The notes beneath the pieces are model-generated. The model was not told where the DNA came from. It saw only the letters and a list, made by a program, of their open reading frames with translations, and did not search any database. A DNA stretch of 32,000 nt, from the NCBI RefSeq assembly GCF_018739865.1, contig NZ_JADOER010000001.1, positions 61,899-93,898 on the forward strand, given 5' to 3'. Both the position numbers and the translations under genes were made by a program. Of this stretch, positions 3,434-20,107 are shown piece after piece (within the stretch, counting starts at the first letter, position 1; every line of letters starts with the position of its first letter). The stretch is from Leptothoe kymatousa TAU-MAC 1615. Lineage in GTDB: Bacteria > Cyanobacteriota > Cyanobacteriia > Phormidesmidales > Phormidesmidaceae.

Positions 3434-4897
3434 ATGGCAACTGCATTATCTCCATCTGTATTTGTAGGTAAATCAATTAAATTTGGTACTGACGGCTGGC
3501 GCGGCATGATCGCAGCCGACTTTACCTTTGAGCGAGTGGATTTGGTCGCTGCCCTGTCCGCTAAAGTTTTAGAAGAATGTTACGGCAGCAATGGCAGCCG
3601 CACGGTAATTGTTGGTTACGACCGCCGATTCTTGTCTCCTGAATTTGCTAGTCACGCCGCTGAAGCCGTTGCCCAGGCTGGTTACGACGTACTACTGTCT
3701 GAGTGTTTTGCCCCCACCCCTGCATTTAGTTGGGCCGCCCATGAGAAGGGTGCCCTTGGCGCCATTGTGATTACGGCTAGCCATAACCCGGCTGCCTATT
3801 CTGGTCTGAAAGTTAAAGGCGCATTTGGGGGGTCTGTGCCACCGGATGTGACGAAAAAAGTTGAAGCCCTATTGCCCCAGGGTAAGCCGGTGGCTGATAC
3901 ACCAGGCACCATCACTGCTTTTGATCCCTGGCCCAGTTACTGCCAAGCATTGCAGAGCATGGTCGACATTGAGGCGATTCGCGGCGCTATTGCCAACGGC
4001 GAACTAACCGTATTTGCCGATGTGATGCATGGTTCAGCGGCAGGCGGCTTTGAGAAGATTTTGGGCATGCCCATTAACGAAATCAACGGTGACGCCGATC
4101 CCCTATTCGAAGGCGGTGCCCCCGAACCCTTGCCCCGATATATTCCTAAGCTCTACAAAGCGATTAAAGATCGTTACCAGGCCGGTGCCGATGGCCTGAC
4201 GGTGGGCATCATTTTTGATGGGGATAGCGATCGCGTTGCTGGCATGGATGGCCAGGGCGAATTCCTAAGTTCTCAAGTATTGATCCCAATTTTGATCGAT
4301 CACCTCAAAGCCAAACGTGGATTTGACGGCGAAGTGATTAAAACGATCAGCGGCTCTAACCTGATGCAAAAGGTGGCTGAGCTCCATGGTTTATCGGTCC
4401 ACGAAACCCCCATCGGCTATAAGTACATTGCCGATCGCATGCTAGAGGCCAAGGTGTTAATTGGTGGTGAAGAGTCCGGTGGTATTGGCTATGGCCACCA
4501 TATTCCTGAGCGCGATGCGTTGCTCTCGGCCCTTTACTTGCTAGAAGCCGTAGTCAAGAGTGGCAAAGACTTTGGCCAGTTGAATCAGTTTTTGCGCCAG
4601 CAAACTGGATTTACCGGTGCCTACGACCGGATCGATTTGCCCCTAGCCAATATGGATGTGCGGGCCAAGCTGTTGGATCAGCTACAAAATGCCACACCCA
4701 CTGAAGTGGCGGGTAAGACGGTCAGTGATGTTCTTTCCATCGATGGCTATAAGTTCTCCCTGGCGGATGGTAGCTGGTTGCTAATTCGCTTTAGTGGAAC
4801 TGAGCCCGTACTACGTCTTTATTCCGAGGCAGCCACCATTGAAGAAGTGCATAAGCACCTCAATTGGGCTAAGGATTGGGCTAGTTCTGTAGCTTAG
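3434..4897 (+). CDS. Alpha-D-phosphohexomutase (phosphoglucomutase/phosphomannomutase family)
   Basis: All four family motifs are present: active-site Ser loop 'TASHNPAAYSGLKV', Mg loop 'FDGDSDRV', sugar loop 'GGEESGG' and phosphate loop 'RFSGTEPVLRLY'. Confidence 0.93.
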   Translation: MATALSPSVFVGKSIKFGTDGWRGMIAADFTFERVDLVAALSAKVLEECYGSNGSRTVIVGYDRRFLSPEFASHAAEAVAQAGYDVLLSECFAPTPAFSWAAHEKGALGAIVITASHNPAAYSGLKVKGAFGGSVPPDVTKKVEALLPQGKPVADTPGTITAFDPWPSYCQALQSMVDIEAIRGAIANGELTVFADVMHGSAAGGFEKILGMPINEINGDADPLFEGGAPEPLPRYIPKLYKAIKDRYQAGADGLTVGIIFDGDSDRVAGMDGQGEFLSSQVLIPILIDHLKAKRGFDGEVIKTISGSNLMQKVAELHGLSVHETPIGYKYIADRMLEAKVLIGGEESGGIGYGHHIPERDALLSALYLLEAVVKSGKDFGQLNQFLRQQTGFTGAYDRIDLPLANMDVRAKLLDQLQNATPTEVAGKTVSDVLSIDGYKFSLADGSWLLIRFSGTEPVLRLYSEAATIEEVHKHLNWAKDWASSVA

Positions 4898-5136: not shown

Positions 5137-5862
5137 ATGGTCGCTGAGATTACATTTGCCCCCATTGCCCATATCCAATCTTGTTATCCCGATCGGTTTG
5201 GGATTCCCCGGCAGGCAGGGTTGGTAAAATCGGCCTATGCCGATATTGTTTTTGAGGCGACCGAAGAGAATAAGTTAGCCCTGCGGGGCATTGAAGAGTT
5301 TTCCCATCTGTGGATATTGTTCTTCTTCCATGGGCAGACCTATCGCAAATTTAAACCCTTAGTCAGGCCCCCTCGCCTGGGTGGCAACAAAAGTGTTGGT
5401 GTTTATGCTACCCGTAGTCCCAACCGCCCAAACCCCATTGGTATGAGCGCTGTGCAATTGTTAGGGGTGGTTGAACAACAAAAAACAATGCGACTGCAAG
5501 TACAGGGGGGAGACTTTTTAGATGGCACCCCCGTCATTGATGTGAAGCCTTATATACCCTATGCCGATGCCCTCAGCGATGCATCTAGTGCCTGGGCCAA
5601 TTATCAGGAGCCATCTTTGCCCGTGCACTGGTCTGCAGCCGCAGAGGCGGTTTTGTTGGCTGATGGGGCCGATGGCGCAGCAGAGAGACTACGGTGCTTG
5701 ATTGGTGAAACCATCGCCCAGGATCCACGACCGGGATATGAACGGGGAAAAGATGGTAAGCCAGGGCAGCGCTGGCATATGCAAATTAATAACTACAGCG
5801 TTTTTTGGACGGTGTATAACAATATTGCAGAGGTGATTGAGTTAATCAAAGTCGATGGCTAG
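5137..5862 (+). CDS. trmO: tRNA (N6-threonylcarbamoyladenosine37-N6)-methyltransferase TrmO (TsaA/YaeB family)
   Basis: Family-typical motifs are 'FGIPRQAG', 'HLWILFFFH', 'ATRSPNRPNPIGMS' and 'LDGTPVIDVKPYIPY'. The ATG at 5137 is preferred over the TTG at 5125 used by the ORF track. Confidence 0.85.
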   Translation: MVAEITFAPIAHIQSCYPDRFGIPRQAGLVKSAYADIVFEATEENKLALRGIEEFSHLWILFFFHGQTYRKFKPLVRPPRLGGNKSVGVYATRSPNRPNPIGMSAVQLLGVVEQQKTMRLQVQGGDFLDGTPVIDVKPYIPYADALSDASSAWANYQEPSLPVHWSAAAEAVLLADGADGAAERLRCLIGETIAQDPRPGYERGKDGKPGQRWHMQINNYSVFWTVYNNIAEVIELIKVDG

Positions 5863-7172
5863 GGCTGTTTGGGTTGTTCAAGGGGTAAGGTGATTTCAAA
5901 TGTTGTTCCCTGGTTGAAGCGCGATTGACAGCGAATATTGCCGTTGTGTCGTTTAATCGTTTGGTGGACGTTGGAAAGCCCTAGGCCGATACCCTGACCA
6001 ATGGGCTTGGTGGTAAAAAATGGATCGAAAATATGTGGATAGTGTTCTGGGGCAATACCGATGCCATTGTCCCGAATGCTAATAACGAGGGAATCTGCCT
6101 GCTGTTGTGTGGTAATTCTAATGGTTGGGGTGGTTATTGTTTCATTCGTTTCAGCTTTTTCATCAATGGCATCAATGGCATTGGTAATGAGCTGGAAGAG
6201 GGCTTGATTGAGTAACTGGGGAAAGCATTCAATTGTGTTAGGACTGAAGCGATAGTTTTTTTCGAGGGAAATTGTTCCCCTGGATGTGGATGTGTGCAAC
6301 CGATTGTTGACCATGAGTAGGCTGTAATCGAGGGCTTGGTGGATGTCGATGGTTTTTTCAGCGGCCTGGTCTAAATTGGCGAAGTTGCGTAGGCCTTGGA
6401 TGATGGTCGCTAAACGTGTGGCCCCACTTTTCATCGAACCTAAAATATGGGGGATATCCTGAAAGATAAAATCTAGGTCGATGGCCTCTAGCTGGGCTTG
6501 AATTGGTGTGGGTATTTTGAAGTCTAGGGACTGATAGAGGGTTAAGGCCTGTTGCAGATCGTTGATGTATCGAGACAAGGGGGCTAAATTACCCGTGATA
6601 AAGGTTAGGGGATTGTTCATTTCATGGGCGATGCCCCCCACCATTTTTCCGAGGCTAGAGAGTTTTGCCGCCTGAATCAGCTTGCCTTGGGCGGCCTTCA
6701 GTTCTATGAGGGCGGTGCGTAGTTTTTTTTCGGTGAGCTCTTGCTGGTGTATTTTTTCCTCTAACTTTTTGTTGGTGTTTTGGATATTTTGTAGGGCCTG
6801 ATGCAATTTTAGGTGAGTTTTTATCCGAGCAATAATTTCAGCTTCTTGAAAGGGTTTAGTGACGTAGTCTGCGGCACCCAGTTGGAAGGCTTTAACTTTG
6901 CTTTCGGTATCTGTTAAGGCCGTCATGAAAATAATGGGAATATGGGCTGTGTCAGGATTGGCCTTAAGCTGCTGGCAGGTTTCAAACCCACTGATTCCAG
7001 GCATCATTACGTCGAGTAAAATAACGTCTGGTGTAGCGTAAGCAACTTTTTCTAATGCACTCTCTCCTGACTTGGCAATTAACACCTCCAGGTTAGCGGT
7101 ATCTAAGCATTCAGAGATTACGCCTAGATTATGGGGATTGTCATCGACGACTAGAACGGTCCCTAAATACAT
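5859..7172 (-). CDS. Response-regulator receiver fused to a histidine kinase (REC-coiled coil-HisKA-HATPase)
   Basis: Receiver motifs are 'VLVVDDNPHN' and 'DVILLDVMMPG'. Kinase motifs are H-box 'GIAHEMNNPL', N-box 'LITNAIDAI', G1 'DNGIGI' and G2 'GQGIGLGLS'. Confidence 0.9.
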   Translation of the reverse strand: MYLGTVLVVDDNPHNLGVISECLDTANLEVLIAKSGESALEKVAYATPDVILLDVMMPGISGFETCQQLKANPDTAHIPIIFMTALTDTESKVKAFQLGAADYVTKPFQEAEIIARIKTHLKLHQALQNIQNTNKKLEEKIHQQELTEKKLRTALIELKAAQGKLIQAAKLSSLGKMVGGIAHEMNNPLTFITGNLAPLSRYINDLQQALTLYQSLDFKIPTPIQAQLEAIDLDFIFQDIPHILGSMKSGATRLATIIQGLRNFANLDQAAEKTIDIHQALDYSLLMVNNRLHTSTSRGTISLEKNYRFSPNTIECFPQLLNQALFQLITNAIDAIDEKAETNETITTPTIRITTQQQADSLVISIRDNGIGIAPEHYPHIFDPFFTTKPIGQGIGLGLSNVHQTIKRHNGNIRCQSRFNQGTTFEITLPLEQPKQP

Positions 7173-7199
7173 GGCTTGGTCGAGCGGATCATAGGTGCT

Positions 7200-9632
7200 T
7201 TATTCGGTGGTTCCCAGGGCGTCTTTTAAGAAAAGGGTTAATTCTTCTTCTTGGAATTCGGTGACAAATTTCTGAATCTGTTGGGTAAAGGCGGTATAAC
7301 TAGAATCTGTTTCCATCAGTTGCTCTGCCTGTAGTTTTATTTTTTTTAGATTACCTTGTAGGGCTAGATGGTGAAGTGATTGAAGAACCTTTTCGGGTGG
7401 GCAGTGGAGACCGCTCGTGGTTGAGGAAGCGATGGCTTTGGGGGCTAATGGCTGGTATACCCAAGTGAGGTTAAGGTGAGTTTGAAGGGCTTTGAACAGG
7501 CTATCGGCTTGTACCGGCTTGGGTAAAAAGTCACTGCTGCCTGCCATTAAGCTGTTTTGTTCATCCACAGCACTGACGCTAGCGGATGAGGTGATGATCG
7601 GAATGGTGTGCCATGCCGCTGACTGGCGGAGCTGTTTGATCAGGGTAAAGCCATCCATAATTGGCATCACTAAATCGGTGATAATGGCATCGGGTTGACA
7701 CTGGTCAAGTTTTTCGAGGGCGTCTTGTCCGTGAATGGCCTCAATAATTTCAAAGCCTACATCGGTGAGTAACCTTGTTAAAACATCGCGATTTTCCCAA
7801 TGGTCATCGACCACTAGAATATGGCGAGTGGGGCCGTCATAGCCGGTGATTTTTTCGTTAACGGCTGTGGCAATTGGGTCTATACTTTCGAGGCAATAGG
7901 GCACTGTAATGGTGAATTCAAAGGTGCTTCCTTGGCCGGGTTGGCTGTTCACCTCGATGGCGCCGCCCATGAGTGACACAATTTGTTGGCTGATGGCTAA
8001 GCCCAGCCCTGTTCCCTCCGCTTGTTTCTGTCGTTGGCCCACCTGTTCAAAGGGGGCAAAAATCTGTTGGCATTGTTCGGGTGAAATGCCAATGCCGGTG
8101 TCTTCTACCATAAAATGTAGCTGGCAGATGTTGTTGCTATGGTCACTGCGGTTAACGCGGAGGGCGACCTTGCCCTGGTCTGTAAATTTGATGGCGTTGC
8201 TCAGGAGATTTAGCAGTACCTGGCGTAGCCGTTTGACGTCGGTGATAATGCCGGTGGGCAATGTGTCGTCAAATAGGTATTGGAATTCAATGTTTTTTTG
8301 GTCGGCCTGGAGCTGACAAATTTCGACGATGCTTTGCAGTAGAGAGCCTAAATGGGCTTCCTTGGGATCTAGGGTGAGTTTACGGGCTTCAATTTTGGCA
8401 AGGTCGAGGATGTCGTTAATCAGGGTGAGGAGGTGGGAGCCGCATTGGTAGATGACCTTGAGCCCTTGTTGATCGCGGGCCCCTAGATGTTGCGATCGCA
8501 GCAAGATTTGAGCATAGCCCAAAATGCCATTGAGGGGAGTGCGCAGTTCGTGGCTCATATTTGCCAAAAACTCACTTTTTGCCTGGTTCGCAGCGTCGGC
8601 TAGTTCCTTCGACTTGCGCAGTTGTTGTTGCTTAAACTGTTGCACCCACCACAGCCCCACCAGCATGGCACTAACCAACCCCAGAATGAGAATGGCCATG
8701 AAGTTTAGTAACTGTAGCTGAGATTCAATATTTTGTTGAGGGATGACCAGGGCCAGGGACCAGTCTGCCTCTTGAATCGGCATATAGGCCACATACACGG
8801 GTTCACCATTTAAGGCCGTTCGATCGATCTTTTTACGACCGTCTACCATCTGTCGCGCGATGGTGGCCAGGGCTTTTTCATCACTGTCAACCAGGCTGGT
8901 TGGATTTTCGTCATTGATGGTACCCATCAATGTTTTGTCGGGATGGATGATGGGTAATCCCGTGGAGTTTAAGGCAAATGCATAGCTATTGGGGCCATAC
9001 TCCAATGCATTGACTTCCTGCTCTAGCTGGTCAATGTCGATCAGCCCAGCGGTGACACCAATGGGGCTGCCCTGTTGGTTGGCATCGGCCCAAATCGTGG
9101 ACGTTACCGCCACGATCGGGGTGTCTAGGGTTCTAGAAATAACAGGGTCAGATACGTAGGTATTACCCTTTAGGGCTTCTTTCACATGCTGACGGTCTTT
9201 TAGATTTTTACCCTCTGCATAACCAACTTTCGTGTTGTAGTAAGTCCCATCCGGGTTGATCATGGCAAAAAAGTAGAAGTCTGGAATGCGGGTGACTTCC
9301 GATTGCAAAAAGGGCTCGGCAATATACCAATCCATGGACCGCATCGACGGGGTGTTGGCGATGCTGGCCACCTCTGCTTTGCGCTGAATTAACCATTGAT
9401 CTAGGGTGTCTGTGCGCTGTTCGAGCTCTAGTAAAACATTGCGTTTGATATTGCTCAGCAGCAGCCCCCGCACAATGCGATAGCTCCAATAGCCGGTGAG
9501 GCCCACCCCAAGCGCCGCACCGAGGACGAGGACTCGCTTAATCCAGCTGCGCAGTCCTTGGCGAAAGGCTTGCTGCGCAGGGGATTCAGTGTTTTTGAGG
9601 TTAGATACTCCAGACAATGGTGCAGGGGTCAT
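7200..9632 (-). CDS. Hybrid sensor histidine kinase (TM - Cache-like periplasmic domain - TM - HisKA - HATPase - REC - helical C-terminal extension)
   Basis: Two hydrophobic segments ('[16 protein letters not shown]', '[20 protein letters not shown]') flank a ~270-aa Cache-like region. Kinase motifs are H-box 'SHELRTPLN', N-box 'LLSNAIKFT', G1 'DTGIGI' and G2 'GTGLGLAIS'. Receiver motifs are '[11 protein letters not shown]' and '[14 protein letters not shown]'. Confidence 0.9.
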
Positions 9633-11162: not shown

Positions 11163-12446
11163 ATGAAACAAGTTTTCACCAACAATACGGCAGTACCCAT
11201 TTCGCGGTTTGCCCCCACCAGTGTTAGTTCCAACCTTAACGTTGCCAATATTCCTGGATCGTTACAGCGCATTACGGTCACCCTCAACCTGGTGCACACC
11301 TTTACCGAAGATCTAAGCATCTCTCTATTAGCCCCCAATGGCTCGTCTATTCTATTAGTCGGTAATGAAGGCGGCAGTGGCGACAACTTTTTCGACACCA
11401 CCTTCGACGACGAAGCAGGGGTGCCCATCACCCAGGGCAGAGCGCCTTTTCAAGGTACATTTCGGCCAGAACAGCCCCTGGCCACCTTGCTCAGCAGTGA
11501 CCCCAACGGCACCTGGTCTTTACAGATTCAAGACCAGGCCTTTTTCGATGGCGGCGTGCTCAATCGCTGGTCCCTAGAGCTAGTTTTTGATAGCCCGGTG
11601 CCCGAGCCCGAGCCCACGCCAACTCCCACGCCAACTCCCACGCCCACGCCCACCCCGACGCCCACGCCTGCTCCAGTATCGCAGTTCACCATCGAAATCC
11701 GCTTCCTAGGTGGTCTCACCGCATCTCAGCGGGCCGTATTTGAAACCGCCGCCGCCCGTTGGCAAGAGATTATTATTGGCGATCTACCCACTACAACCAT
11801 CGACGGTGAGACCATCGATGATGTGCGGATCGAAGCGCGGGGCCTTTCCATCGATGGTCCCAACGGTGTGTTGGGGCGGGCAGGTCCCACCCGGTTGCGC
11901 AGTGGTTCGTTGTTGCCTGCCACCGGCGTGATGGAGTTCGACATTGGTGACCTAGCCCGACTAGAGGCCGAGGGGGGCCTGTTGGATGTCATTATCCACG
12001 AGATGGGCCATGTGCTAGGCATTGGCACCATCTGGCAAACCCAGAACTTGTTGGTGGGGGCAGGCACCGCCAACCCGCAATATGTGGGCCAAAATGGTAT
12101 GCGAGAGTTTTCTACCCTGATTGCGGCCCAAGGGATGACACCAATCCCCGTGGCCAATACCGGTGGCCAGGGCACCCGCGATGGCCATTGGCGCGAAGCT
12201 GTTTTTGGCAATGAGCTAATGACCGGCTTCTTAAACCGGGGGCCAAATCCCCTGAGTCGTTTGACCGTAGGTTCCTTAGAAGATTTGGGCTATGCGGTGA
12301 ACTATACGGCGGCAGATCCCTATGGGCTACCGTCGTCGCTAATGTTAGCGGTGATGGGCGTTAACACCGCTGGGGACTACGGCCATCGTCAGTGTCGCAT
12401 GTGCGATGCGGGCATATTGGGGAATCACTTTTTCCCTCAGGTGTAG
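11163..12446 (+). CDS. Zinc metalloprotease, leishmanolysin (M8)-like catalytic domain preceded by an N-terminal P-domain and a (Thr-Pro)n linker
   Basis: The N-terminal ~140 aa ('ITVTLNLVHTFTEDLSISLLAPNGSSILL ... GTWSLQIQD ... WSLELVF') fit the proprotein-convertase P-domain pattern. The linker is 'PEPEPTPTPTPTPTPTPTPTPAP'. The zinc site is 'VIIHEMGHVLG', with a further His 63 residues after the first in 'RDGHWREAVFGNELMTG', which is like the leishmanolysin family signature. There is no N-terminal hydrophobic signal segment. Confidence 0.8.
   Translation: MKQVFTNNTAVPISRFAPTSVSSNLNVANIPGSLQRITVTLNLVHTFTEDLSISLLAPNGSSILLVGNEGGSGDNFFDTTFDDEAGVPITQGRAPFQGTFRPEQPLATLLSSDPNGTWSLQIQDQAFFDGGVLNRWSLELVFDSPVPEPEPTPTPTPTPTPTPTPTPTPAPVSQFTIEIRFLGGLTASQRAVFETAAARWQEIIIGDLPTTTIDGETIDDVRIEARGLSIDGPNGVLGRAGPTRLRSGSLLPATGVMEFDIGDLARLEAEGGLLDVIIHEMGHVLGIGTIWQTQNLLVGAGTANPQYVGQNGMREFSTLIAAQGMTPIPVANTGGQGTRDGHWREAVFGNELMTGFLNRGPNPLSRLTVGSLEDLGYAVNYTAADPYGLPSSLMLAVMGVNTAGDYGHRQCRMCDAGILGNHFFPQV
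11601..11675 (+). repeat. Coding low-complexity (Pro-Glu)2(Thr-Pro)n tract
   Basis: The sequence is 'cccgagcccgagcccacgccaactcccacgccaactcccacgcccacgcccaccccgacgcccacgcctgctcca'. It includes a perfect 12-nt duplication (cccacgccaact x2). Confidence 0.9.
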
Positions 12447-12775
12447 GCCTGCGGGGAGTTGTGTAAGACTCTTAGGAGAGTTTGATGAGCACTCTCTTCT
12501 CTCAGCATATAATGGAGATTGACAACAAGTCTCCCCTCCTGGGAGGGACTGGGGTGGGTTATCAAGAAGCTTTTTCCTATCGGGGATCGGTTACTTGCGT
12601 TGGCGGTTAACCCACTCCGCCTGCGGCACCTCTCCCGAGAGGGGATGGCCTCCTACCACTATTATGTGCCTGTAACAAATATATTCGTGTCTAAATCCTC
12701 AAATTTGTATGTATAACCCCTGACCTAATCGAATACACAAGCTATAGTAAGAGCGAATTATCCTACGCTCAGTCA

Positions 12776-13855
12776 ATGCCTAAAATCCTGATTCTTGGGG
12801 CGAATCCTAACGGTACTACACGACTACGCTTAGATACAGAAGTCCGAGATATCAGCGATGGGTTAGAACGAGCCAAGCGGCGTGATGAGTTTCAGATTGC
12901 CCAGCGGTGGGCCGTGCGACCCCGCGACCTGCAGCGGGCCATGCTGGATGAACAGCCCCAAATCGTACATTTCTCTGGCCATGGGGAAGGGGAAACGGGG
13001 CTATATTTTGAGGATGAAGTTGGCAATGCGCAGCTGGTGACAGGGGACGCGTTGGCTGGGCTGTTTAAGTTATTTAAGAGCCAGCTACAGTGCGTGGTGC
13101 TAAATGGCTGCTATTCCGAAGTGCAGGCCGAAGCGATTTCGGCCCATATTCCCTATGTTATCGGCATGCGGGATGGGGTAAAGGATACGGCAGCCATTGA
13201 GTTTGCGGTTGGTTTCTATGACGCCCTAGGCACTGGGCAGTCGGTGGAGTTTGCCTTTGAGTTTGGCAAAGCGGCCATGGCCCTAGGCGGAGTGGGCGAC
13301 GAAGATTTGCCTGTGTTGCTCCAGTCGGAAACAGGCTCTGCTAGTGGTGGGTCGCCTGCAGCACCTGCCCCCTCGACCCCGTCAAAGCCGGTGGATCCCA
13401 ATCAGCCCTTGAACGTGTTTATTTCCTATTCCCATCGGGATGAAGACCTCAAGGAAGAGCTGGAGGTGCATCTGTCCACCCTGAAGCGACAAAAGAAAAT
13501 TAAACCCTGGCAGGATCGGTCCATTGAGGCCGGAACAGAATGGGACGATGAAATTAAAACCGCCCTGGAAAATGCCCAGATCATCCTGATGCTGGTAACA
13601 CCCCGGTTTATGGCCTCGGACTACATCAACGACATTGAGCTAGCCCATGCCATGAAACGCCACAATGCCGGCACCGCACGGGTGATTCCCATTATCCTCA
13701 AACCGTCGGATGTCAAAGATACGCCATTGAGTAACCTCCAGGCATTGCCCAAGGATGCCAAGCCAGTCACCCGCTGGGATGACCAGGATGAAGCCTTTTT
13801 GGATGTGGTCAAGGGCATTCGTCGGGTGGTAGATTCCCTCACTAAAAACCCTTAG
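12776..13855 (+). CDS. Two-domain effector protein: N-terminal compact caspase/CHAT-like domain + C-terminal TIR domain
   Basis: Residues 1-180 carry 'IVHFSGHG' (His65/His69) and 'VVLNGCYS' (Cys112), the His...Cys order of caspase-fold CHAT domains. Residues 181-210 are a Pro/Ser/Ala linker. Residues 211-345 show the TIR pattern: 'VFISYSHRD', 'WQDRSIEAGTEWDDEI' and 'IILMLVTPRFMASDYINDIELAHA', with candidate catalytic Glu288. Confidence 0.82.
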   Translation: MPKILILGANPNGTTRLRLDTEVRDISDGLERAKRRDEFQIAQRWAVRPRDLQRAMLDEQPQIVHFSGHGEGETGLYFEDEVGNAQLVTGDALAGLFKLFKSQLQCVVLNGCYSEVQAEAISAHIPYVIGMRDGVKDTAAIEFAVGFYDALGTGQSVEFAFEFGKAAMALGGVGDEDLPVLLQSETGSASGGSPAAPAPSTPSKPVDPNQPLNVFISYSHRDEDLKEELEVHLSTLKRQKKIKPWQDRSIEAGTEWDDEIKTALENAQIILMLVTPRFMASDYINDIELAHAMKRHNAGTARVIPIILKPSDVKDTPLSNLQALPKDAKPVTRWDDQDEAFLDVVKGIRRVVDSLTKNP

Positions 13856-13941
13856 CCGCCTCTTCGACTCCGGAGGATGCCCCTGCGGAGAGGCGAGATA
13901 CGGTATCAAAATCCCCAATTCCAGAGCAAACTCTGGGGTAT

Positions 13942-16020
13942 TTGTCCCCTAGCGTGCCGCGACTGCCACCCAAATTTTTACCAAGGTCAGAAGATTTAGG
14001 CGTGCTCAAAACGACAATCTTAGGGTCTAGTCAGCCGCCGGTGGCGGTCACCGGCACCCGACGGGGGCTTAGCATTCAGGGCATGGGGGGCATTGGCAAG
14101 TCGGTGTTGGCGGCGGCCCTTGCCCGGGATAGTGCGGTGCGTCAGGCATTTGCCGATGGGGTGTATTGGGTGTCCCTAGGCCAGGAGCCCAATGTGCTGT
14201 CGTTGCAGACGGAATTAGCACGGGAATTGGGTGACAAAACACCGGACTTTAGTGATGTGTCGGGGGGTAAAAAGTTTTTGACCGAGCTGCTGGCACCGCA
14301 GCGTTGTTTTGTGGTGTTGGATGATATTTGGGATGAACAACATCTGCGGGCATTTGATGTATTGGGGGACCAGGGCCAGATGCTGGTCACCACCCGCGAT
14401 AGTAGCTTGGTGACGGGCATTGGTGCGGTGGAGCACTCGTTGAATTTATTGTCGCCTGACCAGGCCAGGGTGTTGTTGGCGAGGTGGACCGGCTGTGGGG
14501 TAACGGAGCTGCCAACCGAGGCGGATAAGATTGCCAGGGAATGTGGCTATTTGCCCCTGGCGCTGGCCATGGCGGGGGCCATGCTGAAGAAAAGTCGTCG
14601 TTGGGAGTCGGTGTTGCAGCGGCTGCAGCGGGCAGACCTGGATAAGATTCGGCAACAGTTCCCGGACTATGACTATCCAGACCTGCTGAAGATGCTGCAG
14701 GTGAGTGTGGATGCTTTGGAGCCAGAGCTGCAGGAGAGATATTTAGACTTTGCGGTATTTCCAGAGGATGCGCGCATACCGGAGGCGGTATTGCAGACGC
14801 TGTGGGCACCTGTGGGCCTGGATGAGCTGGATGTGGTGGATATTTTGGATGACCTGGTGGCCAAGTCGTTGTTGCGACGGGACGATCAGGAGAATTTGTT
14901 TCTCCATGATTTGCAGTATGACTACATTGGTAAGCAGGTAAAGGATTTGCCTGGGCTGCATCAGCGGTGGTTGGATGCGTATAAAGAAAAATGTGGGCAG
15001 GGTTGGGCCAGCTGCCCCCAGGATGGCTACTTTTTTGGTCAGCTGACGCGGCATTTAAAAGAGGCGGGGCAGGTGGATCAGCTGCGCAGTTTGTTGTTTG
15101 ACTATGACTGGCTGCGGGCACAGCTAACGGCCAATGGCATCAATGGTTTGCTGGCAGATTATGACTGGCTAACGGATGACAAACTGTTGCAGCTGTTGCA
15201 GAGCACATTGCGGCTATCGGCCCATGTGTTGGCCACTAAACCACAACAGCTAAACCAGAGGCTCTGGGGCCACCTGAGGGATAGGGAACAACCAGAATTT
15301 AGCACGTTGTTAACCGAGGGGGCCGCGCAACAACCATCACTGTGGCTGCAACCCCAGCAAGCTAACCTGACGGCCCCCGATGGGGCATTGTTGCGTACCT
15401 TTGAGGGCCATAGCGGCGAGGTCATGTCCGTGGCGCTGAGTGAGGATGGCCGTCATGCGCTGTCAGGGTCATACGACAAGACGATGAAACTGTGGGATGT
15501 GACGACGGGAGAGGCGTTGCGCACCTTTGAGGGCCATAGCGGCGGGGTCAGGTCCGTGGCGCTGAGTGAGGATGGCCGTCATGCGCTGTCAGGGTCAGAA
15601 GACAAGACGATGAAACTGTGGGATGTGACGACGGGAGAGGCGTTGCGCACCTTTGAGGGCCATAGCGGCTGGGTCAGGTCCGTGGCGCTGAGTGAGGATG
15701 GCCGTCATGCGCTGTCAGGGTCATCCGACAATACGATGAAACTGTGGGATGTGACGACGGGAGAGGCGTTGCGCACCTTTGAGGGCCATAGCGGCTGGGT
15801 CGGGTCCGTGGCGCTGAGTGAGGATGGCCGTCATGCGCTGTCAGGGTCATCCGACAATACGATAAAACTGTGGGATCTGACCACGGACAACTGTTTAGCC
15901 ACCTTCTGTGGCGACCATTCATTCTATGCCTGTGACCTATCTGCCGATGGCGTCACCATTGTTGCGGGCGACCAAGCAGGCACCGTCCATTTCTTTTCTG
16001 TTATCACACCAGAGCCTTAG
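13942..16020 (+). CDS. STAND NTPase of the NB-ARC / Apaf-1 (AP-ATPase) type with C-terminal WD40 repeats and no N-terminal effector domain
   Basis: NB-ARC motifs are Walker A 'GMGGIGKS', Walker B 'CFVVLDDIWD', 'LVTTRD', 'GYLPLALAMAG' and the MHD-equivalent 'LFLHDL'. A helical region 'LLFDYDWLRAQL...LLADYDWL' resembles Apaf-1 HD2. Four near-identical WD40 units plus one degenerate unit follow. The start is uncertain: TTG 13942 or GTG 13954. The first ATG (14083) lies inside the Walker A motif. Confidence 0.85.
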   Translation: MSPSVPRLPPKFLPRSEDLGVLKTTILGSSQPPVAVTGTRRGLSIQGMGGIGKSVLAAALARDSAVRQAFADGVYWVSLGQEPNVLSLQTELARELGDKTPDFSDVSGGKKFLTELLAPQRCFVVLDDIWDEQHLRAFDVLGDQGQMLVTTRDSSLVTGIGAVEHSLNLLSPDQARVLLARWTGCGVTELPTEADKIARECGYLPLALAMAGAMLKKSRRWESVLQRLQRADLDKIRQQFPDYDYPDLLKMLQVSVDALEPELQERYLDFAVFPEDARIPEAVLQTLWAPVGLDELDVVDILDDLVAKSLLRRDDQENLFLHDLQYDYIGKQVKDLPGLHQRWLDAYKEKCGQGWASCPQDGYFFGQLTRHLKEAGQVDQLRSLLFDYDWLRAQLTANGINGLLADYDWLTDDKLLQLLQSTLRLSAHVLATKPQQLNQRLWGHLRDREQPEFSTLLTEGAAQQPSLWLQPQQANLTAPDGALLRTFEGHSGEVMSVALSEDGRHALSGSYDKTMKLWDVTTGEALRTFEGHSGGVRSVALSEDGRHALSGSEDKTMKLWDVTTGEALRTFEGHSGWVRSVALSEDGRHALSGSSDNTMKLWDVTTGEALRTFEGHSGWVGSVALSEDGRHALSGSSDNTIKLWDLTTDNCLATFCGDHSFYACDLSADGVTIVAGDQAGTVHFFSVITPEP
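15391..15894 (+). repeat. Four tandem 126-bp (42-codon) near-identical WD40-coding units
   Basis: Units start at 15391, 15517, 15643 and 15769. Units 1-3 differ from their neighbour at only 5 of 126 nt. Each encodes 'LRTFEGHSGxVxSVALSEDGRHALSGSxDxTMKLWDVTTGEA'. Confidence 0.97.
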
Positions 16021-16894
16021 CTGCCGACATATAAGCAAAGCTCCCCACTCCCCTACATCAAAAAATCTCTTGCCAACTGCACGACCTTTCCCCTTCAAAC
16101 TAACGGATCGCCTTGGCTCTTATCCAATTCTTTACCCAACCTTAAACGACAGTTTCATAAAAGCGCTCGTAACCAAAGACATTTTTTGATTTAAACATTA
16201 AAATAACAATAATTGTGTTGATATGTTAACTCGTTGTGGAGCTTGCTACAGGCCGGTTTGCACATGACACCCCAAAAAATATGCTTGGGTGAAAAGCGCA
16301 GGGAGAGCACGCCAACCCATAAAGCCTAGGAAAAGTCCCATATACATTACGTAAAGACATTGTATTTATACGTATTTGCTGATTTGCAGCACCAAGCCAT
16401 CTGAAAAAGTCTTATGTCCCATTTTTTTTCGGATTCCATCATCCCCTGGATAAGAATCAGTAACGCCCCCGGTCTTTACTTATCTTTTTGCAAGCCCCTG
16501 TCCTCAGGCGTATGCACAACAATAAAATCCCAACAGGATTCTGTTATGCCGCTTCTGCCTTAGGCAGGCATAAGTTAGAGAGGGCGGCTAAATCTCTTTT
16601 TTTTAATGGTTCCCAAATAGCCTAGGACAAGGATTCCCTTCGCAAGGCTGCCGTGTATACACATCAAAGGGGGATTTAGGGGGCCAGGGAGGGGGCTGGA
16701 TCACTTGCGCTAACGATCGAAGCCCCCTCCGTTGAGCTCCTGACGTAGGTTGGGTAGAACTCCGTGAAACCCAACACCCTAGGCTAGCAACAACAACTCT
16801 CCTAGGCACGCGAAAAATAACGCTCTACCCATAGTTCAACAACAGTTAATTCCTTACCCATAACACCCGTCTTTTTATTCATACGATCCTCCAT

Positions 16895-19800
16895 ATGCTG
16901 ACCTCTACTCCTATCGTTGATGTCACAACCCAACCAACATCGGTAGCCCTTCCAAACCAAACAACAACCCAACATACCGTTATCCTCGATTCACAAATTG
17001 AGGACCTAAACCTACTGCTGGATGGTTTACGAGCAGATGTCACAGCCCATGTGCTCACAGCCCATGAGGATGGATTACAGCAAATCACTGCGTTTCTAAC
17101 GCAACATCCCACACAGCACCTAACCCTCCTGGCCCATGGCTTCCCCGGTGGTATGCGCCTGGGGGCAACCACCGTAGACATTAACCACTTAGACACTCAC
17201 ACTCCGCAGCTGCAGCAGTGGTTTGCCCCCACCGCCCCGGCAAAACTAACTCTAATGGCTTGTAATGTGGCCCAAGGGGATGCGGGGCAGGCGTTTATTC
17301 AACAACTTGCGACCGTTACCGCCGCTGATGTTACGGCCAGCGTCAATGTTTTGGGTAATGGCGTTTGGCTACCCGCTGCTAAGGCGTTGTTTACGCCGGC
17401 AACCCTGGCGGCCTACCGTGGCACCCTGCAATGGTCAACTGTGGGTGCCGGGGCCATTGCCCCCCAGATTGACAACGACTTTGACATTGAAATAGACAGC
17501 CAGGGTACGCCCTATATTATTTTCCAGGATGATGCCAATGGCGTGACGGTGAAACGGTTCGATGGCCTCAATTGGGTGGATGTGGGGGTGCCCGGTTTTC
17601 CGGAGGGCAATGCTAGCTTTGTCGGCCTAGAATTTGGCCTGAATGATACCCCCTATGTGGTCTTTAAGGATGATGCCAATAACAGCCGGGCCACGGTGAT
17701 GCAGTTTAATGGCACCGACTGGGCCTATGTGGGTGATCCTGGCTTTTCGCCGGGAGGGTTTAAGGACATTAACATGAAGTTCTACGGTGATGCGCCCTAT
17801 GTGGTGTTCACCGATAGAACCCAAAATTCCCGGGCCACGGTGATGGTCTTTGATGGCCTCAGTTGGGAAACGGTGGGCAACCCTGGCTTTTCCACTGGGG
17901 CGGTGGCCGCCTCTGATATCAACATTGATGGCAACGGTGTGCCCTATGTGGCCTATGTGTCTGGGGAAGAGGGCTTCGAACAGGTCTCTGTGCAGCGATT
18001 TATCAATGGCCAGTGGAGCTTTGTTGGCGCGGAAGGATTTTCGGTGGGGGCGGAGGCTGCCAGACCGGATATTGAGTTTGATAATAACAATGTGCCCTAC
18101 CTTGTTTACCGGGCTCGGGGCAACGGCGAAGGCAATAAGGCCATTGTGCAATCGTTTAATGGCACCGACTGGATCAAAGTGGGCAGCAATGATGCGTCCA
18201 TTGCCGGTGGTTTCCACCCCGATCTGGAGTTTGACCAGAACAATGTTCTCAATCTGGCGATTGTGGACCAGGCTCTGAAAGATAAGGTCTCGGTGCGCAT
18301 CCTGAATCCAGATAATACCTGGGGCTATTTGGATGATAGTGGTTTCTCGTTGGGGCCAACAAACTTCCCAGACCTGGAGTTTGATAGCAACAACCTGCCC
18401 TATGTGCTCTATCGTGAGACGTTTGACGCCAATGGGGATGTTGCATCCAGCGCCGTGGTAAAACGTTTGGGCGAACCCGCTACGGTGGTGGATAATATCG
18501 CCCCTGTGTTGGCCAGTGTGAGTCGCAAAACTCCCCTTGGGGCGACGGTCCCTAGTGGCACTGTGGTGTTTGAGGCGCTCTTTAGTGAGGCGGTGGCCAA
18601 TGTTGGCCCAGAAGATTTTGTGATTAATGGGTTGCCCACGGCCACCATTGATGCGGTAACGACGACAGACAGCACTCGCTATGACATTGCGGTGACGGCC
18701 ACTGGCGCAGCCGGTAGCGTTTTTGGGCTAGATTTAGCTACGGTGTCTGACATTGTGGATATTGCGGGCAATGGGTTAACCCTGGCAGAGCCCACTGTGG
18801 ATGAGGCATATACCCTTGCGGGACCTTTGGTGGCCCCTGTGCTATCCAGCATCCGTCGCAAAACGCCCGTTGAGGCTGCGGTTACTGGTAATAGCACCCT
18901 GGTATTTGAGGCCACCTTTAGTGAGGGGGTGGTCAACGTTGGCCCAGAAGATTTTGTGATTAATGGGTTGCCCACGGCCACCATTGCCGGGGTAACGGCT
19001 GTGGACGCCACTCGCTATGACATTGCGGTGACGGCCAATGTGGGGGATGCCGCCAGTGGCACGGTTGGTTTAGATTTGGCCGCAGTTTCGGATATTGTCA
19101 ACGCTGCGGGGACGGCCTTAACGCTGGTCGAGCCGACGGTGGATCAGGCGTATACCGTTACGGCCCCAGGGACTGTGGCCCCAGCGCCTCCGGCCACCCC
19201 TGTGGTTGAGCCTCCTACCCCCCCCGTTGTATTGCCTGAGGTGGTAACGCCCGTTGCACCTGGTGCGCTGACGATTTTACCCAGTGTGAATCGGGTGGAA
19301 GTGACATCTCTAGGCACCGATAATACGCTGCAGCTAACATTTCGAGGGGGGCAGGTGACGAATGTCCCCGACATTCTGGTCTTTGATGAGGCGGATGCGC
19401 TGATTGGCCAGTTTTCCTTGCTGGATTCTGATGACCTAGCTGCGGGGTATACGTCTCGGTTTACCATCAGTAGCAATGCCATTAGTGTTGGTCAGAGTTT
19501 GCAGTTTGCGATTCAGGATGGGGAGACGACCTGGTTTGCAGACCCCGCAAGGCTATCCGACTCTGAAGCTCTGTTGAGGTTTGGCAATGGGTTTAGCTTT
19601 AATGTGGGATTGGCGACCGAAACGGGTAGTACGAACCTATTGGTAAATGATGCGGAGTCTATTGACCTGACGGGGCAGGCGTCTGGCACCATCAGTTTCT
19701 CGGTGTATCGAGAGGCGGCGATGGATAATACGGTGGATTTGTATACAACTGATTTTGCCGATGGTGGCATTGTTGATGCGTTCACTGGGCGCACCTTGAT

Positions 19801-20107
19801 GCCCGGTGATGCTGGCTATAGGGCAGCGGCCATTTCTAATCGGTTAAATCTCAACCTATCGGGCACCAACGGTCAGGTTAATACGGTGGATGCGGCGGTT
19901 ACCGGCGGCATGCATCTCGGCATTTTTGTGGTGATCGATGGCATAGACCCTGCCGTTGGCGAGGTTGTGTTTAGCCACAGTGGAGCCAATGCCAATGGGG
20001 CGGACCACATTAAACACCTGGGCGACAATTCTTTTGGCATTGAAGATCAGGCTGGGTTGGGCGATAAAGACTTTGACGATATTGTTTTACAGTTTTCTGT
20101 TGCCTAG
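16895..20107 (+). CDS. Large multidomain protein: DUF4347-like N-terminus, seven ~50-aa propeller-like repeats, two Ig-like repeats, Pro-rich linker, DUF4114-like C-terminus
   Basis: The N-terminus 'VILDSQIEDL...LTLLAHGFPGGMRLG...LTLMACNVAQGDAGQAFIQQLA' has a DUF4347-like pattern. Seven repeats follow the form 'D(I/L)EFDxxxxPYVxY...xATVxxFNGTDWxxVGxPGFS' (aa ~190-528). Two ~112-aa repeats ('RKTP...VFEA.FSE.V.NVGPEDFVINGLPTATI...RYDIAVTA') share a 49-nt identical block. The C-terminal 'FGIEDQAGLGDKDFDDIVLQF' is DUF4114-like. There is no signal peptide. Confidence 0.8.
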   Translation: MLTSTPIVDVTTQPTSVALPNQTTTQHTVILDSQIEDLNLLLDGLRADVTAHVLTAHEDGLQQITAFLTQHPTQHLTLLAHGFPGGMRLGATTVDINHLDTHTPQLQQWFAPTAPAKLTLMACNVAQGDAGQAFIQQLATVTAADVTASVNVLGNGVWLPAAKALFTPATLAAYRGTLQWSTVGAGAIAPQIDNDFDIEIDSQGTPYIIFQDDANGVTVKRFDGLNWVDVGVPGFPEGNASFVGLEFGLNDTPYVVFKDDANNSRATVMQFNGTDWAYVGDPGFSPGGFKDINMKFYGDAPYVVFTDRTQNSRATVMVFDGLSWETVGNPGFSTGAVAASDINIDGNGVPYVAYVSGEEGFEQVSVQRFINGQWSFVGAEGFSVGAEAARPDIEFDNNNVPYLVYRARGNGEGNKAIVQSFNGTDWIKVGSNDASIAGGFHPDLEFDQNNVLNLAIVDQALKDKVSVRILNPDNTWGYLDDSGFSLGPTNFPDLEFDSNNLPYVLYRETFDANGDVASSAVVKRLGEPATVVDNIAPVLASVSRKTPLGATVPSGTVVFEALFSEAVANVGPEDFVINGLPTATIDAVTTTDSTRYDIAVTATGAAGSVFGLDLATVSDIVDIAGNGLTLAEPTVDEAYTLAGPLVAPVLSSIRRKTPVEAAVTGNSTLVFEATFSEGVVNVGPEDFVINGLPTATIAGVTAVDATRYDIAVTANVGDAASGTVGLDLAAVSDIVNAAGTALTLVEPTVDQAYTVTAPGTVAPAPPATPVVEPPTPPVVLPEVVTPVAPGALTILPSVNRVEVTSLGTDNTLQLTFRGGQVTNVPDILVFDEADALIGQFSLLDSDDLAAGYTSRFTISSNAISVGQSLQFAIQDGETTWFADPARLSDSEALLRFGNGFSFNVGLATETGSTNLLVNDAESIDLTGQASGTISFSVYREAAMDNTVDLYTTDFADGGIVDAFTGRTLMPGDAGYRAAAISNRLNLNLSGTNGQVNTVDAAVTGGMHLGIFVVIDGIDPAVGEVVFSHSGANANGADHIKHLGDNSFGIEDQAGLGDKDFDDIVLQFSVA

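Follow-up and report, generated by a model that had tools for sequence, protein, structure and literature searches.

Two neighbouring open reading frames (ORFs) in a stretch of 32,000 nucleotides (nt) of DNA (the window) from the filamentous cyanobacterium Leptothoe kymatousa (Nodosilineales) probably represent one NLR-like gene of the Apaf-1 STAND type, of conflict or programmed-cell-death kind, that is written in two frames and would give two products through programmed -1 ribosomal frameshifting. ORF1 (12776-13855, 359 aa) encodes a putative dual effector made up of a CHAT domain and a TIR domain, and ORF2 (13942-16020, 692 aa) encodes an NB-ARC-WD40 NTPase; both lie on the + strand with 86 nt between them. 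The evidence for frameshifting comes from the relation of the two frames, from in-phase slippery heptamers at the end of ORF1, from a covarying hairpin immediately downstream, and from start codons that are missing from ORF2 in some relatives. The main comparison set consisted of 79 cyanobacterial genome loci (L numbers denote loci throughout), to which L082 and L086 were added via protein-identity look-ups, and 80 independent metagenome loci were used for replication. An earlier interpretation of the window made from the letters alone (hereafter the sequence-only reading) had placed both ORFs correctly and had proposed a trans-activated cell-death module; the functional linkage of the two ORFs is upheld by fusions and co-divergence (see below), but the frameshift signals speak against two separate polypeptides.

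Relative to ORF1, the frame of ORF2 is -1 in each of the 13 CHAT-TIR/NB-ARC pairs, the gap being always 2 mod 3 at lengths of 14-272 nt, which corresponds to a binomial p of 6e-7; frame p-values of this kind overstate independence because the loci are phylogenetically related, and this has to be held against the argument. The ORF2 frame is also open across the ORF1 stop in 13/13 pairs, from 10-82 nt upstream of it. In the window it is open from 13846, and the overlap of the two frames is confined to the 10 nt of 13846-13855, which hold A_AAC_CCU and then TAG. Alignment of the junction from five genomes revealed that the "intergenic" DNA is more conserved than the flanking genes. Hence the distance of 86 nt given by the sequence-only reading is right, but the gap is no neutral spacer. 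Within it, a stop-free run of 30 codons in the -1 frame (LAASSTPEDAPAERRDTVSKSPIPEQTLGY; 13852-13941, + strand, from translation) would bridge ORF1 and ORF2 once the shift has occurred.

The overlap of the frames contains a slippery heptamer of the X_XXY_YYZ type, A_AAC_CCU (13846-13852, + strand), which is in phase with ORF1 (zero-frame codons AAC CCT) and is directly followed by TAG. The same heptamer occurs in L002, L082, L075, L079, L102, L096 and L146. Ten more distant pairs have the dnaX heptamer A_AAA_AAG instead, with the stop codon directly after it in nine and four codons later in L022, and all ten possess -1 ORFs of 194-1102 codons. The presence of A_AAA_AAG at the gene end explains the widespread "KK" C-termini of the CHAT-TIR family. 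Where a CHAT-TIR gene ends without a slippery sequence, the -1 frame runs for 2-40 codons only, save for L014, an ordinary ATGA stop-start overlap, and L027/L028, with a -1 frame of 131 codons. In E. coli measurements A_AAA_AAG and the C_CCU tetramer both proved prone to shifting (PMC4066793), and dnaX-type sites with a zero-frame stop after the site and a long product that depends on the shift have been described (PMC5009743). Taken as a sequence pattern, the junction suggests a dnaX-type programmed -1 frameshift site of just this arrangement, with a long product that would need the shift.

Two other possible elements at the site were considered. A GGAGG motif that could act as an upstream Shine-Dalgarno (SD)-like stimulator is found ~22-24 nt 5′ of the site in some relatives; it was set aside, being judged too far upstream and lying within conserved coding sequence. 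Transcriptional slippage is unlikely in the window because the run is only A5C3. In some relatives (L097, ~2385-2395, and L155, ~4348-4358) runs of 9-10 A replace the heptamer at the junction, and these could act via transcriptional slippage rather than ribosomal frameshifting.

Five nt past the heptamer begins a stem-loop (13858-13894, + strand) with the arms GCCUCUUCG (13858-13866) and CGGAGAGGC (13886-13894), which by covariation and folding is a putative stimulator of -1 frameshifting. The hairpin region of the window folds with a dG of -23.4 kcal/mol (z -2.18). More generally, the 55 nt after the site have a mean fold z of -2.3 in genes with a long -1 ORF (11/20 below -2), as compared with +0.1 in control CHAT-TIR genes without one (0/23 below -2). 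In a 17-sequence alignment of the 10-bp helix, 92.9% of the cells are paired, versus 73.8% in shuffled alignments and 43-52% in slid controls; compensatory changes are seen in 8 of the 10 base pairs, 35 cells are changed on both sides, and none of 500 shuffles reaches the observed values.

An intrinsic terminator between the ORFs was ruled out as a role for this structure, as + strand calls gave none and the hairpin is not followed by a T-run. A search of the junction against Rfam with an E limit of 10 gave no credible family; the sole match (E 3.6, 12 bits) was on the opposite strand and is attributable to chance. The hairpin loop in the window (13872-13879) holds GGAGGATG, i.e. an SD-like GGAGG directly before an ATG, which lies in the third frame and opens a short ORF only. 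This sequence is common to the window and L082; other close relatives have GGAT then A, or a different sequence.

Start codons provide the remaining line of evidence. The ORF2 frame of L022 has its first ATG, GTG or TTG only after the P-loop, and that of L083 and L086 has no start codon before the conserved N-terminal motif LGYLSPSVPRLPPKFLPR, so that the intact protein could not be made by ordinary initiation in these genomes. The NCBI annotation of ORF2 in the window (P0121, 672 aa, MLKTT) starts 20 codons past the first in-frame start and thereby drops PRLPPKFLPR, a motif that orthologues and fused relatives alike preserve and that is internal in the fused proteins P0127 and P0161.

The association was seen again in the metagenome loci, where 6 of 8 ORFs ending in an A-run or an A_AAC_CCU heptamer have a long -1 ORF, heptamers of other types have none, and no case was found in the +1 frame. 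The products of these -1 ORFs are NB-ARC, NB-ARC-WD40, NACHT, AAA_16, VMAP-C or TPR proteins. When the genome and metagenome sets were pooled, a slippery end was associated with a long -1 ORF with an odds ratio of 12.7 (p 2.7e-8), and the comparison of -1 with +1 gave a p of 5e-8, with a long +1 ORF in 0 of 30 heptamer-bearing genes. A covariance model combining heptamer and hairpin, run over ~0.5 Mb, matched only the ends of CHAT-domain ORFs, namely in L102, L105, L146 and the window. The L146 match (4106-4160) consists of A_AAC_CCT, TAA and a hairpin with a different but complementary stem, and lies at the end of a CHAT-only ORF that has an internal stop; the -1 frame there encodes an apparent helix-turn-helix segment of the LuxR or sigma-70 region-4 type. 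The cassette may thus serve non-STAND partners too.

Both halves of the locus could be assigned to protein families with confidence. The ORF1 protein has an exact (100%) match in NCBI, a 'TIR domain-containing protein' of L. kymatousa, and belongs to an abundant family (>100 homologues, 58-84% identity). Pfam, PADLOC and the NCBI identity all describe the zero-frame product, which would be the short, 359-aa CHAT-TIR protein ending at TAG 13853-13855. The N-terminal part (aa 1-185, 12776-13330, + strand) was recognized as CHAT by Pfam (aa 40-158, 5.7e-10; profile positions 123-256 of 289, i.e. the catalytic core only) and by the PADLOC 'chat' model (2.6e-20). A profile built from 16 homologues matched, among PDB entries, the CHAT domain of the SAVED-CHAT protease 8TL0 (2.4e-22) with the catalytic dyad aligned: His69 (12980-12982) and Cys112 (13109-13111) correspond to chain positions 355 and 402, which with a constant offset of +20 are H375 and C422, the residues mutated in catalytically dead SAVED-CHAT (bioRxiv 10.1101/2023.06.23.546230). 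An AlphaFold2 model of aa 1-185 (pLDDT 87, pTM 0.87) retrieved 8TL0 as the top Foldseek match (TM 0.84, E 6e-14), followed by caspases-11, -4, -1, -6 and -3. Across 83 related domains from the 79 genome loci the His is kept in 81/82 and the Cys in 83/83. Given the structural match to 8TL0 and caspases together with the alignment and conservation of the dyad, the CHAT domain of ORF1 is very likely an active, minimal (~180 aa) caspase-fold protease.

The single CHAT domain of the 82 that lacks the His belongs to a CHAT-NB-ARC-WD40 fusion in L008 (2969-6850; the same as L081 1969-5850, on the Acaryochloris marina plasmid pREB7), in which the catalytic His is replaced by Arg (HFAGRG). Immediately 3′ of this fusion comes a CHAT-TIR gene that is intact and has a putative frameshift site, A_AAA_AAG, into an NB-ARC-TPR frame. 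From this single case, the His-less CHAT on the L008 NLR could serve to dock the active CHAT-TIR by homotypic contact. The compact CHAT domain (aa 1-181, 52-64% identical) was also found on many Nostocales plasmids, in proteins annotated as SAVED, NACHT, AAA-like, metallophosphoesterase or pentapeptide-repeat, and these plasmid matches suggest that it is a highly mobile effector module.

The TIR domain of ORF1 (aa 211-359, 13406-13852, + strand) matched Pfam TIR_2 (aa 214-324, 1.4e-17) and the ThsB-type TIR model of PADLOC (3.4e-50), and its profile matched the Cat1, TLR and plant TIR structures in the PDB. The candidate catalytic residue Glu288 (13637-13639) is invariant among homologues and aligns with the Glu of the W-C-x-D-E-L region of the Cat1 and TLR TIRs, which we take to be the catalytic one. 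The CHAT/caspase-like fold, the TIR domain and the candidate catalytic residues named in the sequence-only reading are therefore all retained.

ORF2 lies in the -1 frame relative to ORF1; its 692 aa are counted from TTG 13942, with GTG 13954 as an alternative start. Pfam found NB-ARC (aa 43-257, 14068-14712, 1.7e-31), the Apaf-1 HD2-type helical domain APAF1_C (aa 336-434, 14947-15243, 2.6e-12) and WD40 repeats (15373-16017), all on the + strand. All motifs are intact, including Walker A GMGGIGKS, Walker B VVLDDIWD, TTRD with the sensor-1 Arg, GYLPLAL, and the MHD-like LHD just upstream of HD2 (~aa 321-323); H318 is invariant in the homologue alignment. Residues 32-430 align with human Apaf-1 143-559 (8e-46), and the matches to plant NLRs (1e-19) and Dark (1e-5) are weaker. 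The AlphaFold2 model of ORF2 (pLDDT 88) has full-length Apaf-1 as its best Foldseek match (3sfz, 1.7e-43), and the comparison with Apaf-1 1z6t gave a TM of 0.66 normalised to the target. By homology, then, ORF2 is a STAND NTPase of the AP-ATPase/NB-ARC clade, of Apaf-1 type, as the sequence-only reading had already recognized, together with the WD40 blades after HD2 and the want of any effector domain in ORF2 itself.

The WD40 sensor has five blades (20 beta-strands in the model), encoded by four near-identical units of 126 nt and one degenerate unit; the tandem array at 15390-15886 comprises 3.9 copies of the 126-nt unit at 96% identity. The differences between units are mostly nonsynonymous (between units 1-3, for instance, 3-4 codons differ nonsynonymously and 0-1 synonymously) and are concentrated at repeat positions 10, 12, 28 and 30. 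In the WD40 repeats of fungal NLRs, variability concentrated in this manner marks the ligand-contact positions. The pattern suggests concerted evolution together with diversification of ligand-contact residues. WD40 copy number differs greatly among orthologues, whose lengths range from 563 to 1090 aa.

Several kinds of evidence link the two ORFs. Downstream of CHAT-TIR and on its strand, L002, L003, L004, L006, L029, L082 and L086 carry a close NB-ARC(-WD40) homologue, and more distant NB-ARC-TPR genes lie 3′ of CHAT-TIR in L008, L011, L015 and L022; the gene order is conserved in at least 10 genomes. The two proteins diverge together, the identities of CHAT, TIR and NB-ARC going from 83/88/82% in L002 down to 56/50/54% in L029. 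P0127 is an in-frame fusion, in which a TIR domain 69% identical to that of ORF1, to its last residues, is joined by a Ser/Pro-rich linker to an NB-ARC-WD40 part 64% identical to ORF2; a CHAT-only gene upstream of this fusion was looked for and none was found. P0161, L008 and L040 are single-ORF fusions of CHAT with NB-ARC and WD40 or TPR. These Rosetta-stone fusions, the co-divergence and the conserved order support a functional unit of ORF1 and ORF2 of the NLR-like conflict or cell-death kind. The domain order CHAT-TIR-STAND furthermore occurs within ordinary single ORFs with other STAND modules (L019, L027, L061), and the other neighbours of CHAT-TIR are TIR-CHASE2, TIR-TPR, iSTAND, VMAP and nSTAND genes. 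Such fusions and varied STAND-type neighbours imply that CHAT-TIR is a promiscuous effector cassette of STAND-type systems. Some relatives of ORF1 carry EAD1 or EAD9, or adjoin EAD9-iSTAND or EAD9-VMAP genes.

The locus is a variable spot. The sequence-only reading had asked whether homologous pairs are kept as neighbours in variable islands: the order and the variability are both there, but the NB-ARC part is absent or broken in six relatives. That is, the close relatives L001, L010, L084, L085 and L087 keep an intact CHAT-TIR gene without the NB-ARC part; tblastn found no NB-ARC remnants in the syntenic loci of L010 (Adonisia turfae) and L001, and no NB-ARC-WD40 was found downstream of CHAT-TIR in L084, L085 and L087. 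In L083 the NB-ARC gene is fragmented, with a DDE transposase gene just downstream, and CHAT-TIR is intact. This recurrent loss of the NTPase with the effector kept speaks against a model in which a toxic effector needs the NTPase as its inhibitor. At the L010 junction a heptamer variant, A_ACC_CCT TAG, remains, and the hairpin and the -1 ORF are gone. In L087 (Leptolyngbya sp. Heron Island J), one of the loci without NB-ARC, a convergent MoxR-type AAA/vWA/WD40 set (5176-9098), of the kind that Kaur et al. call a 'ternary system', lies directly beside CHAT-TIR, and L001 has an unannotated 680-aa gene at the position of this set.

These losses weigh against a single frameshifted gene, since CHAT-TIR kept without NB-ARC means that the short product has a life of its own, and they are not the only points on that side. 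At the slippery site, L003, L004 and L083 keep the C_CCU tetramer only, and L086 has no recognisable slippery motif; A_AAC_CCU itself is no top-ranked bacterial heptamer, the related A_AAC_CCA being ineffective in E. coli (PMC4066793). The minimum-free-energy fold of the window differs in detail from the covarying helix. ORF2 of the window has possible starts of its own, TTG 13942 and GTG 13954, and independent translation may therefore coexist with frameshifting. Five blades are odd for a propeller, which could reflect assembly collapse of the 96%-identical repeats or a degenerate sensor. Lastly, the window is without any other defence gene and without a defence island.

The presence of these start codons leads directly to the possibility of a two-protein system, which we regard as unlikely but deserving of serious consideration. 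ORF2 would be translated alone, from TTG 13942 or GTG 13954, the NB-ARC-WD40 protein would activate CHAT-TIR in trans and non-covalently, and the hairpin would tune coupling or mRNA stability. Such an arrangement agrees with NCBI and other gene callers, which annotate two genes and call the close homologues P0122-P0124 from 'MPRLPPKF', and operonic pairs of caspase and AP-ATPase genes are known (PMC8195603). What it leaves unexplained is the junction: reinitiation or independent starts predict neither the -1 frame in 13/13 pairs, nor the frame open over the stop, nor the in-phase heptamers, nor the covarying hairpin, and conserved NB-ARC sequence lies before any ATG, GTG or TTG in L022, L083 and L086. 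Two free proteins would also need a means of contact, and neither has a shared adaptor or amyloid motif: no EAD or bDLD Pfam match was obtained in either ORF, BLASTP of ORF1 against ORF2 found no shared segment, and an amyloid motif common to the ORF1 C-terminus and the ORF2 N-terminus (BASS) was ruled out for want of BLASTP similarity. Frameshift fusion removes the puzzle of how an adaptor-less, effector-less NLR recruits its effector.

A further view, in our opinion improbable, would have CHAT-TIR act autonomously, e.g. with the TIR product activating the fused protease in cis, loosely as in type IV Thoeris, where TIR-to-caspase signalling is established (bioRxiv 10.1101/2024.10.24.620036), and with NB-ARC-WD40 as an unrelated neighbour in a variable spot. 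The relatives with intact CHAT-TIR and a missing or broken NB-ARC part, and the many alternative partners, fit this view. Yet the same TIR and CHAT domains are fused to the same NB-ARC clade, the pair co-diverges, the junction carries recoding signals, and nearly all the other partners are STAND-type NTPases, fused or adjacent. Decay of an ancestral in-frame fusion by a frameshift mutation, or a sequencing error, such that ORF2 is no longer expressed, has in its favour that relatives have in-frame fusions, that the WD40 sensor is short here, and that several relatives lack the NB-ARC part or have it in broken form. It is nevertheless highly improbable, and a pseudogene or error was rejected since divergent genomes (50-88% protein identity) and different STAND classes share the arrangement with different heptamers; moreover the hairpin shows compensatory changes and the ORF2 motifs are all intact.

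If the locus is a single gene expressed by -1 frameshifting, most ribosomes would halt at TAG 13853 and release free CHAT-TIR of 359 aa. Some would slip back by one base on A_AAC_CCU, a step that would be favoured by the adjacent stop codon and by the hairpin 5 nt downstream, and would continue through the 30-residue linker into NB-ARC-WHD-HD2-WD40. The predicted product is a CHAT-TIR-NB-ARC-WD40 protein of 1081 aa, whose junction peptide would contain SLTKNPLAASSTPEDAPAER (DSLTKNPLAASSTPEDAPAER). Binding of a trigger by the WD40 blades would lead to nucleotide exchange and oligomerisation of the NB-ARC module, like in Apaf-1, and thereby gather the N-terminal effectors, so that the TIR domains would form NAD+-cleaving assemblies and the compact CHAT protease would be switched on by oligomerisation, as in SAVED-CHAT. 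Free CHAT-TIR may enter these assemblies via TIR-TIR or CHAT-CHAT contacts and amplify the output, with growth arrest or cell death as the end result. Anti-phage defence, allorecognition and developmental death are conceivable biological roles.

We lean, if only slightly, towards a wider generalization from the sequence comparisons, in which many cyanobacterial NLR-like genes would use a portable recoding cassette (heptamer, stop and hairpin) ending the CHAT or CHAT-TIR ORF, with NB-ARC, NACHT, nSTAND, AAA_16 or VMAP as STAND partners. The cassette would fix the ratio of free to sensor-fused effector and work as an amplifier: once a ligand is recognised, the sensor-fused form would seed an assembly on which the free form would then polymerise. 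Such a translationally encoded amplifier would be analogous to the gamma/tau products of dnaX or to the G/GT pair of phages.

The locus can be compared with several known systems. With Apaf-1 and its bacterial orthologues it has in common the order NBD-HD1-WHD-HD2 followed by WD40, but it is without a CARD, has CHAT and TIR effectors encoded upstream in another frame, and has 5 WD40 blades as opposed to the 7+8 of Apaf-1. The SAVED-CHAT protein (8TL0) of the Haliangium ochraceum type III-B CRISPR/CBASS hybrid is the closest solved relative of ORF1 aa 1-185 in its compact fold and dyad, and is an active protease activated by filament formation (bioRxiv 10.1101/2023.06.23.546230). In that system the activating module is a cA3-binding SAVED domain, whereas here it would be a STAND NTPase, and its substrate PCaspase has no counterpart in the window. 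Plant TNLs and bacterial TIR-STAND proteins (e.g. TIR-bearing Avs) likewise have TIR N-terminal to a STAND NTPase and a repeat sensor, exactly as in P0127, but here a protease domain precedes TIR, and a stop and a frame change separate TIR from NB-ARC. No Avs/NLR model of PADLOC matched ORF2, for which only a weak WD40-type match to HEAT-ARM_XIII was returned.

The NTP-dependent conflict systems of Kaur et al. (2020, 2021) comprise caspase-like or TIR effectors and AP-ATPase, iSTAND or VMAP NTPases in multicellular cyanobacteria, as does this locus in kind. There, EAD or bDLD adaptors do the coupling; neither ORF carries one, which sets the locus apart from these adaptor-coupled systems, and coupling is apparently via recoding. 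Type IV Thoeris is a defence module that likewise unites TIR with a caspase-fold protease (bioRxiv 10.1101/2024.10.24.620036), but as two proteins linked by diffusible N7-cADPR, with no STAND NTPase; the locus was not assigned to it, as here TIR and a compact CHAT protease are fused in one ORF. Among the Thoeris families of NCBIfam (E <= 0.1), whose coverage of type IV was not checked, only a weak type III match was found (ThcB4, 8.9e-4, far below the cut-off). Types I and II were set aside as well: the TIR domain matches the ThsB model, but the window is without a ThsA-like gene. Searches with PADLOC and NCBIfam gave domain-level matches ('chat', the ThsB-type TIR model, weak FxsC and FxSxx_TPR), but no catalogued defence system.

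In its recoding signals the junction resembles dnaX-type -1 frameshifting, also known from IS3/IS911 transposases and the G/GT phage tail chaperones, in having an X_XXY_YYZ heptamer, a 5-nt spacer, a 3′ stem-loop and two products with a common N-terminal part. The differences are the gene class, which here is NLR-like immune or cell-death, the heptamer A_AAC_CCU of the window, and the lack of an identified upstream SD-like stimulator; the arrangement is known here from sequence alone. The building blocks and the operonic links of caspases and AP-ATPases have been described computationally (PMC7159879, PMC8195603, PMC13581612), caspase-bearing Apaf-1 orthologues have been noted in cyanobacteria, and cyanobacteria are reported to hold the closest homologues of Apaf-1 (PMC13581612). 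In the literature on frameshifting in STAND, NLR or TIR systems, no report of effector and STAND ORFs joined by programmed frameshifting was found, and the 2013 GeneTack survey makes no mention of STAND, NLR or TIR families. The sequence-only reading had known of no characterised split CHAT-TIR/NB-ARC-WD40 pair, and our literature search likewise found no experimentally characterised system. What is new is thus the recoding link, of which we found no report; the domain kit and the CHAT/TIR/AP-ATPase associations were already known from comparative genomics.

The surroundings of the locus are chromosomal and syntenic with relatives in the order AzlCD, CHAT-TIR, DUF4347 and SDR/PNP. A consensus scan gave a weak sigma-70-like promoter match 5′ of ORF1 (12720-12748, + strand, 9/12 matches), and the count of promoter-like sites in the region was not above that of shuffles. 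Directly upstream of ORF1 lies a gene (11163-12446) for a leishmanolysin-like M8 peptidase with a P-domain of the proprotein-convertase type and a (PT)n linker, and the 3′ end of an M8 peptidase gene is also found 5′ of CHAT-TIR in L. spongobia (L006). A predicted subtilase with a proprotein-convertase P-domain is encoded at 7-1473; no link between these two P-domain proteases and the module was established. ORF2 is followed by 875 nt (16021-16894) of AT-richer DNA (GC ~0.45) that has promoter-like matches and no sizeable ORF, and then by the gene for a giant DUF4347/DUF4114 protein (16895-20107); a DUF4347 gene is present at the corresponding position in Adonisia and absent from L. spongobia. 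No further CHAT, TIR or NB-ARC copies were found in the window, and a search of the whole window against the Rfam RNA families gave tRNA-Pro only.

The bacterial NLR-like STAND proteins are regarded as relatives of the immune receptors of animals and plants, and a central question about them is how effector and sensor are coupled. Coupling is known to occur by direct fusion, through adaptor domains, through amyloid motifs and by small-molecule signals. Frameshifting, if real, would add a fifth mode, in which free and sensor-tethered effector are made from one mRNA in a ratio hard-wired in the RNA, and the 55-nt element makes this directly testable in reporters. Current annotation systematically mis-describes such loci as an orphan "TIR domain-containing protein" and an N-terminally truncated "NB-ARC protein", and catalogues of defence systems would miss or mis-split them. 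Recoding aside, a compact caspase-plus-TIR dual effector on an Apaf-1-type switch would be a useful model for the origin of apoptosome-like signalling.

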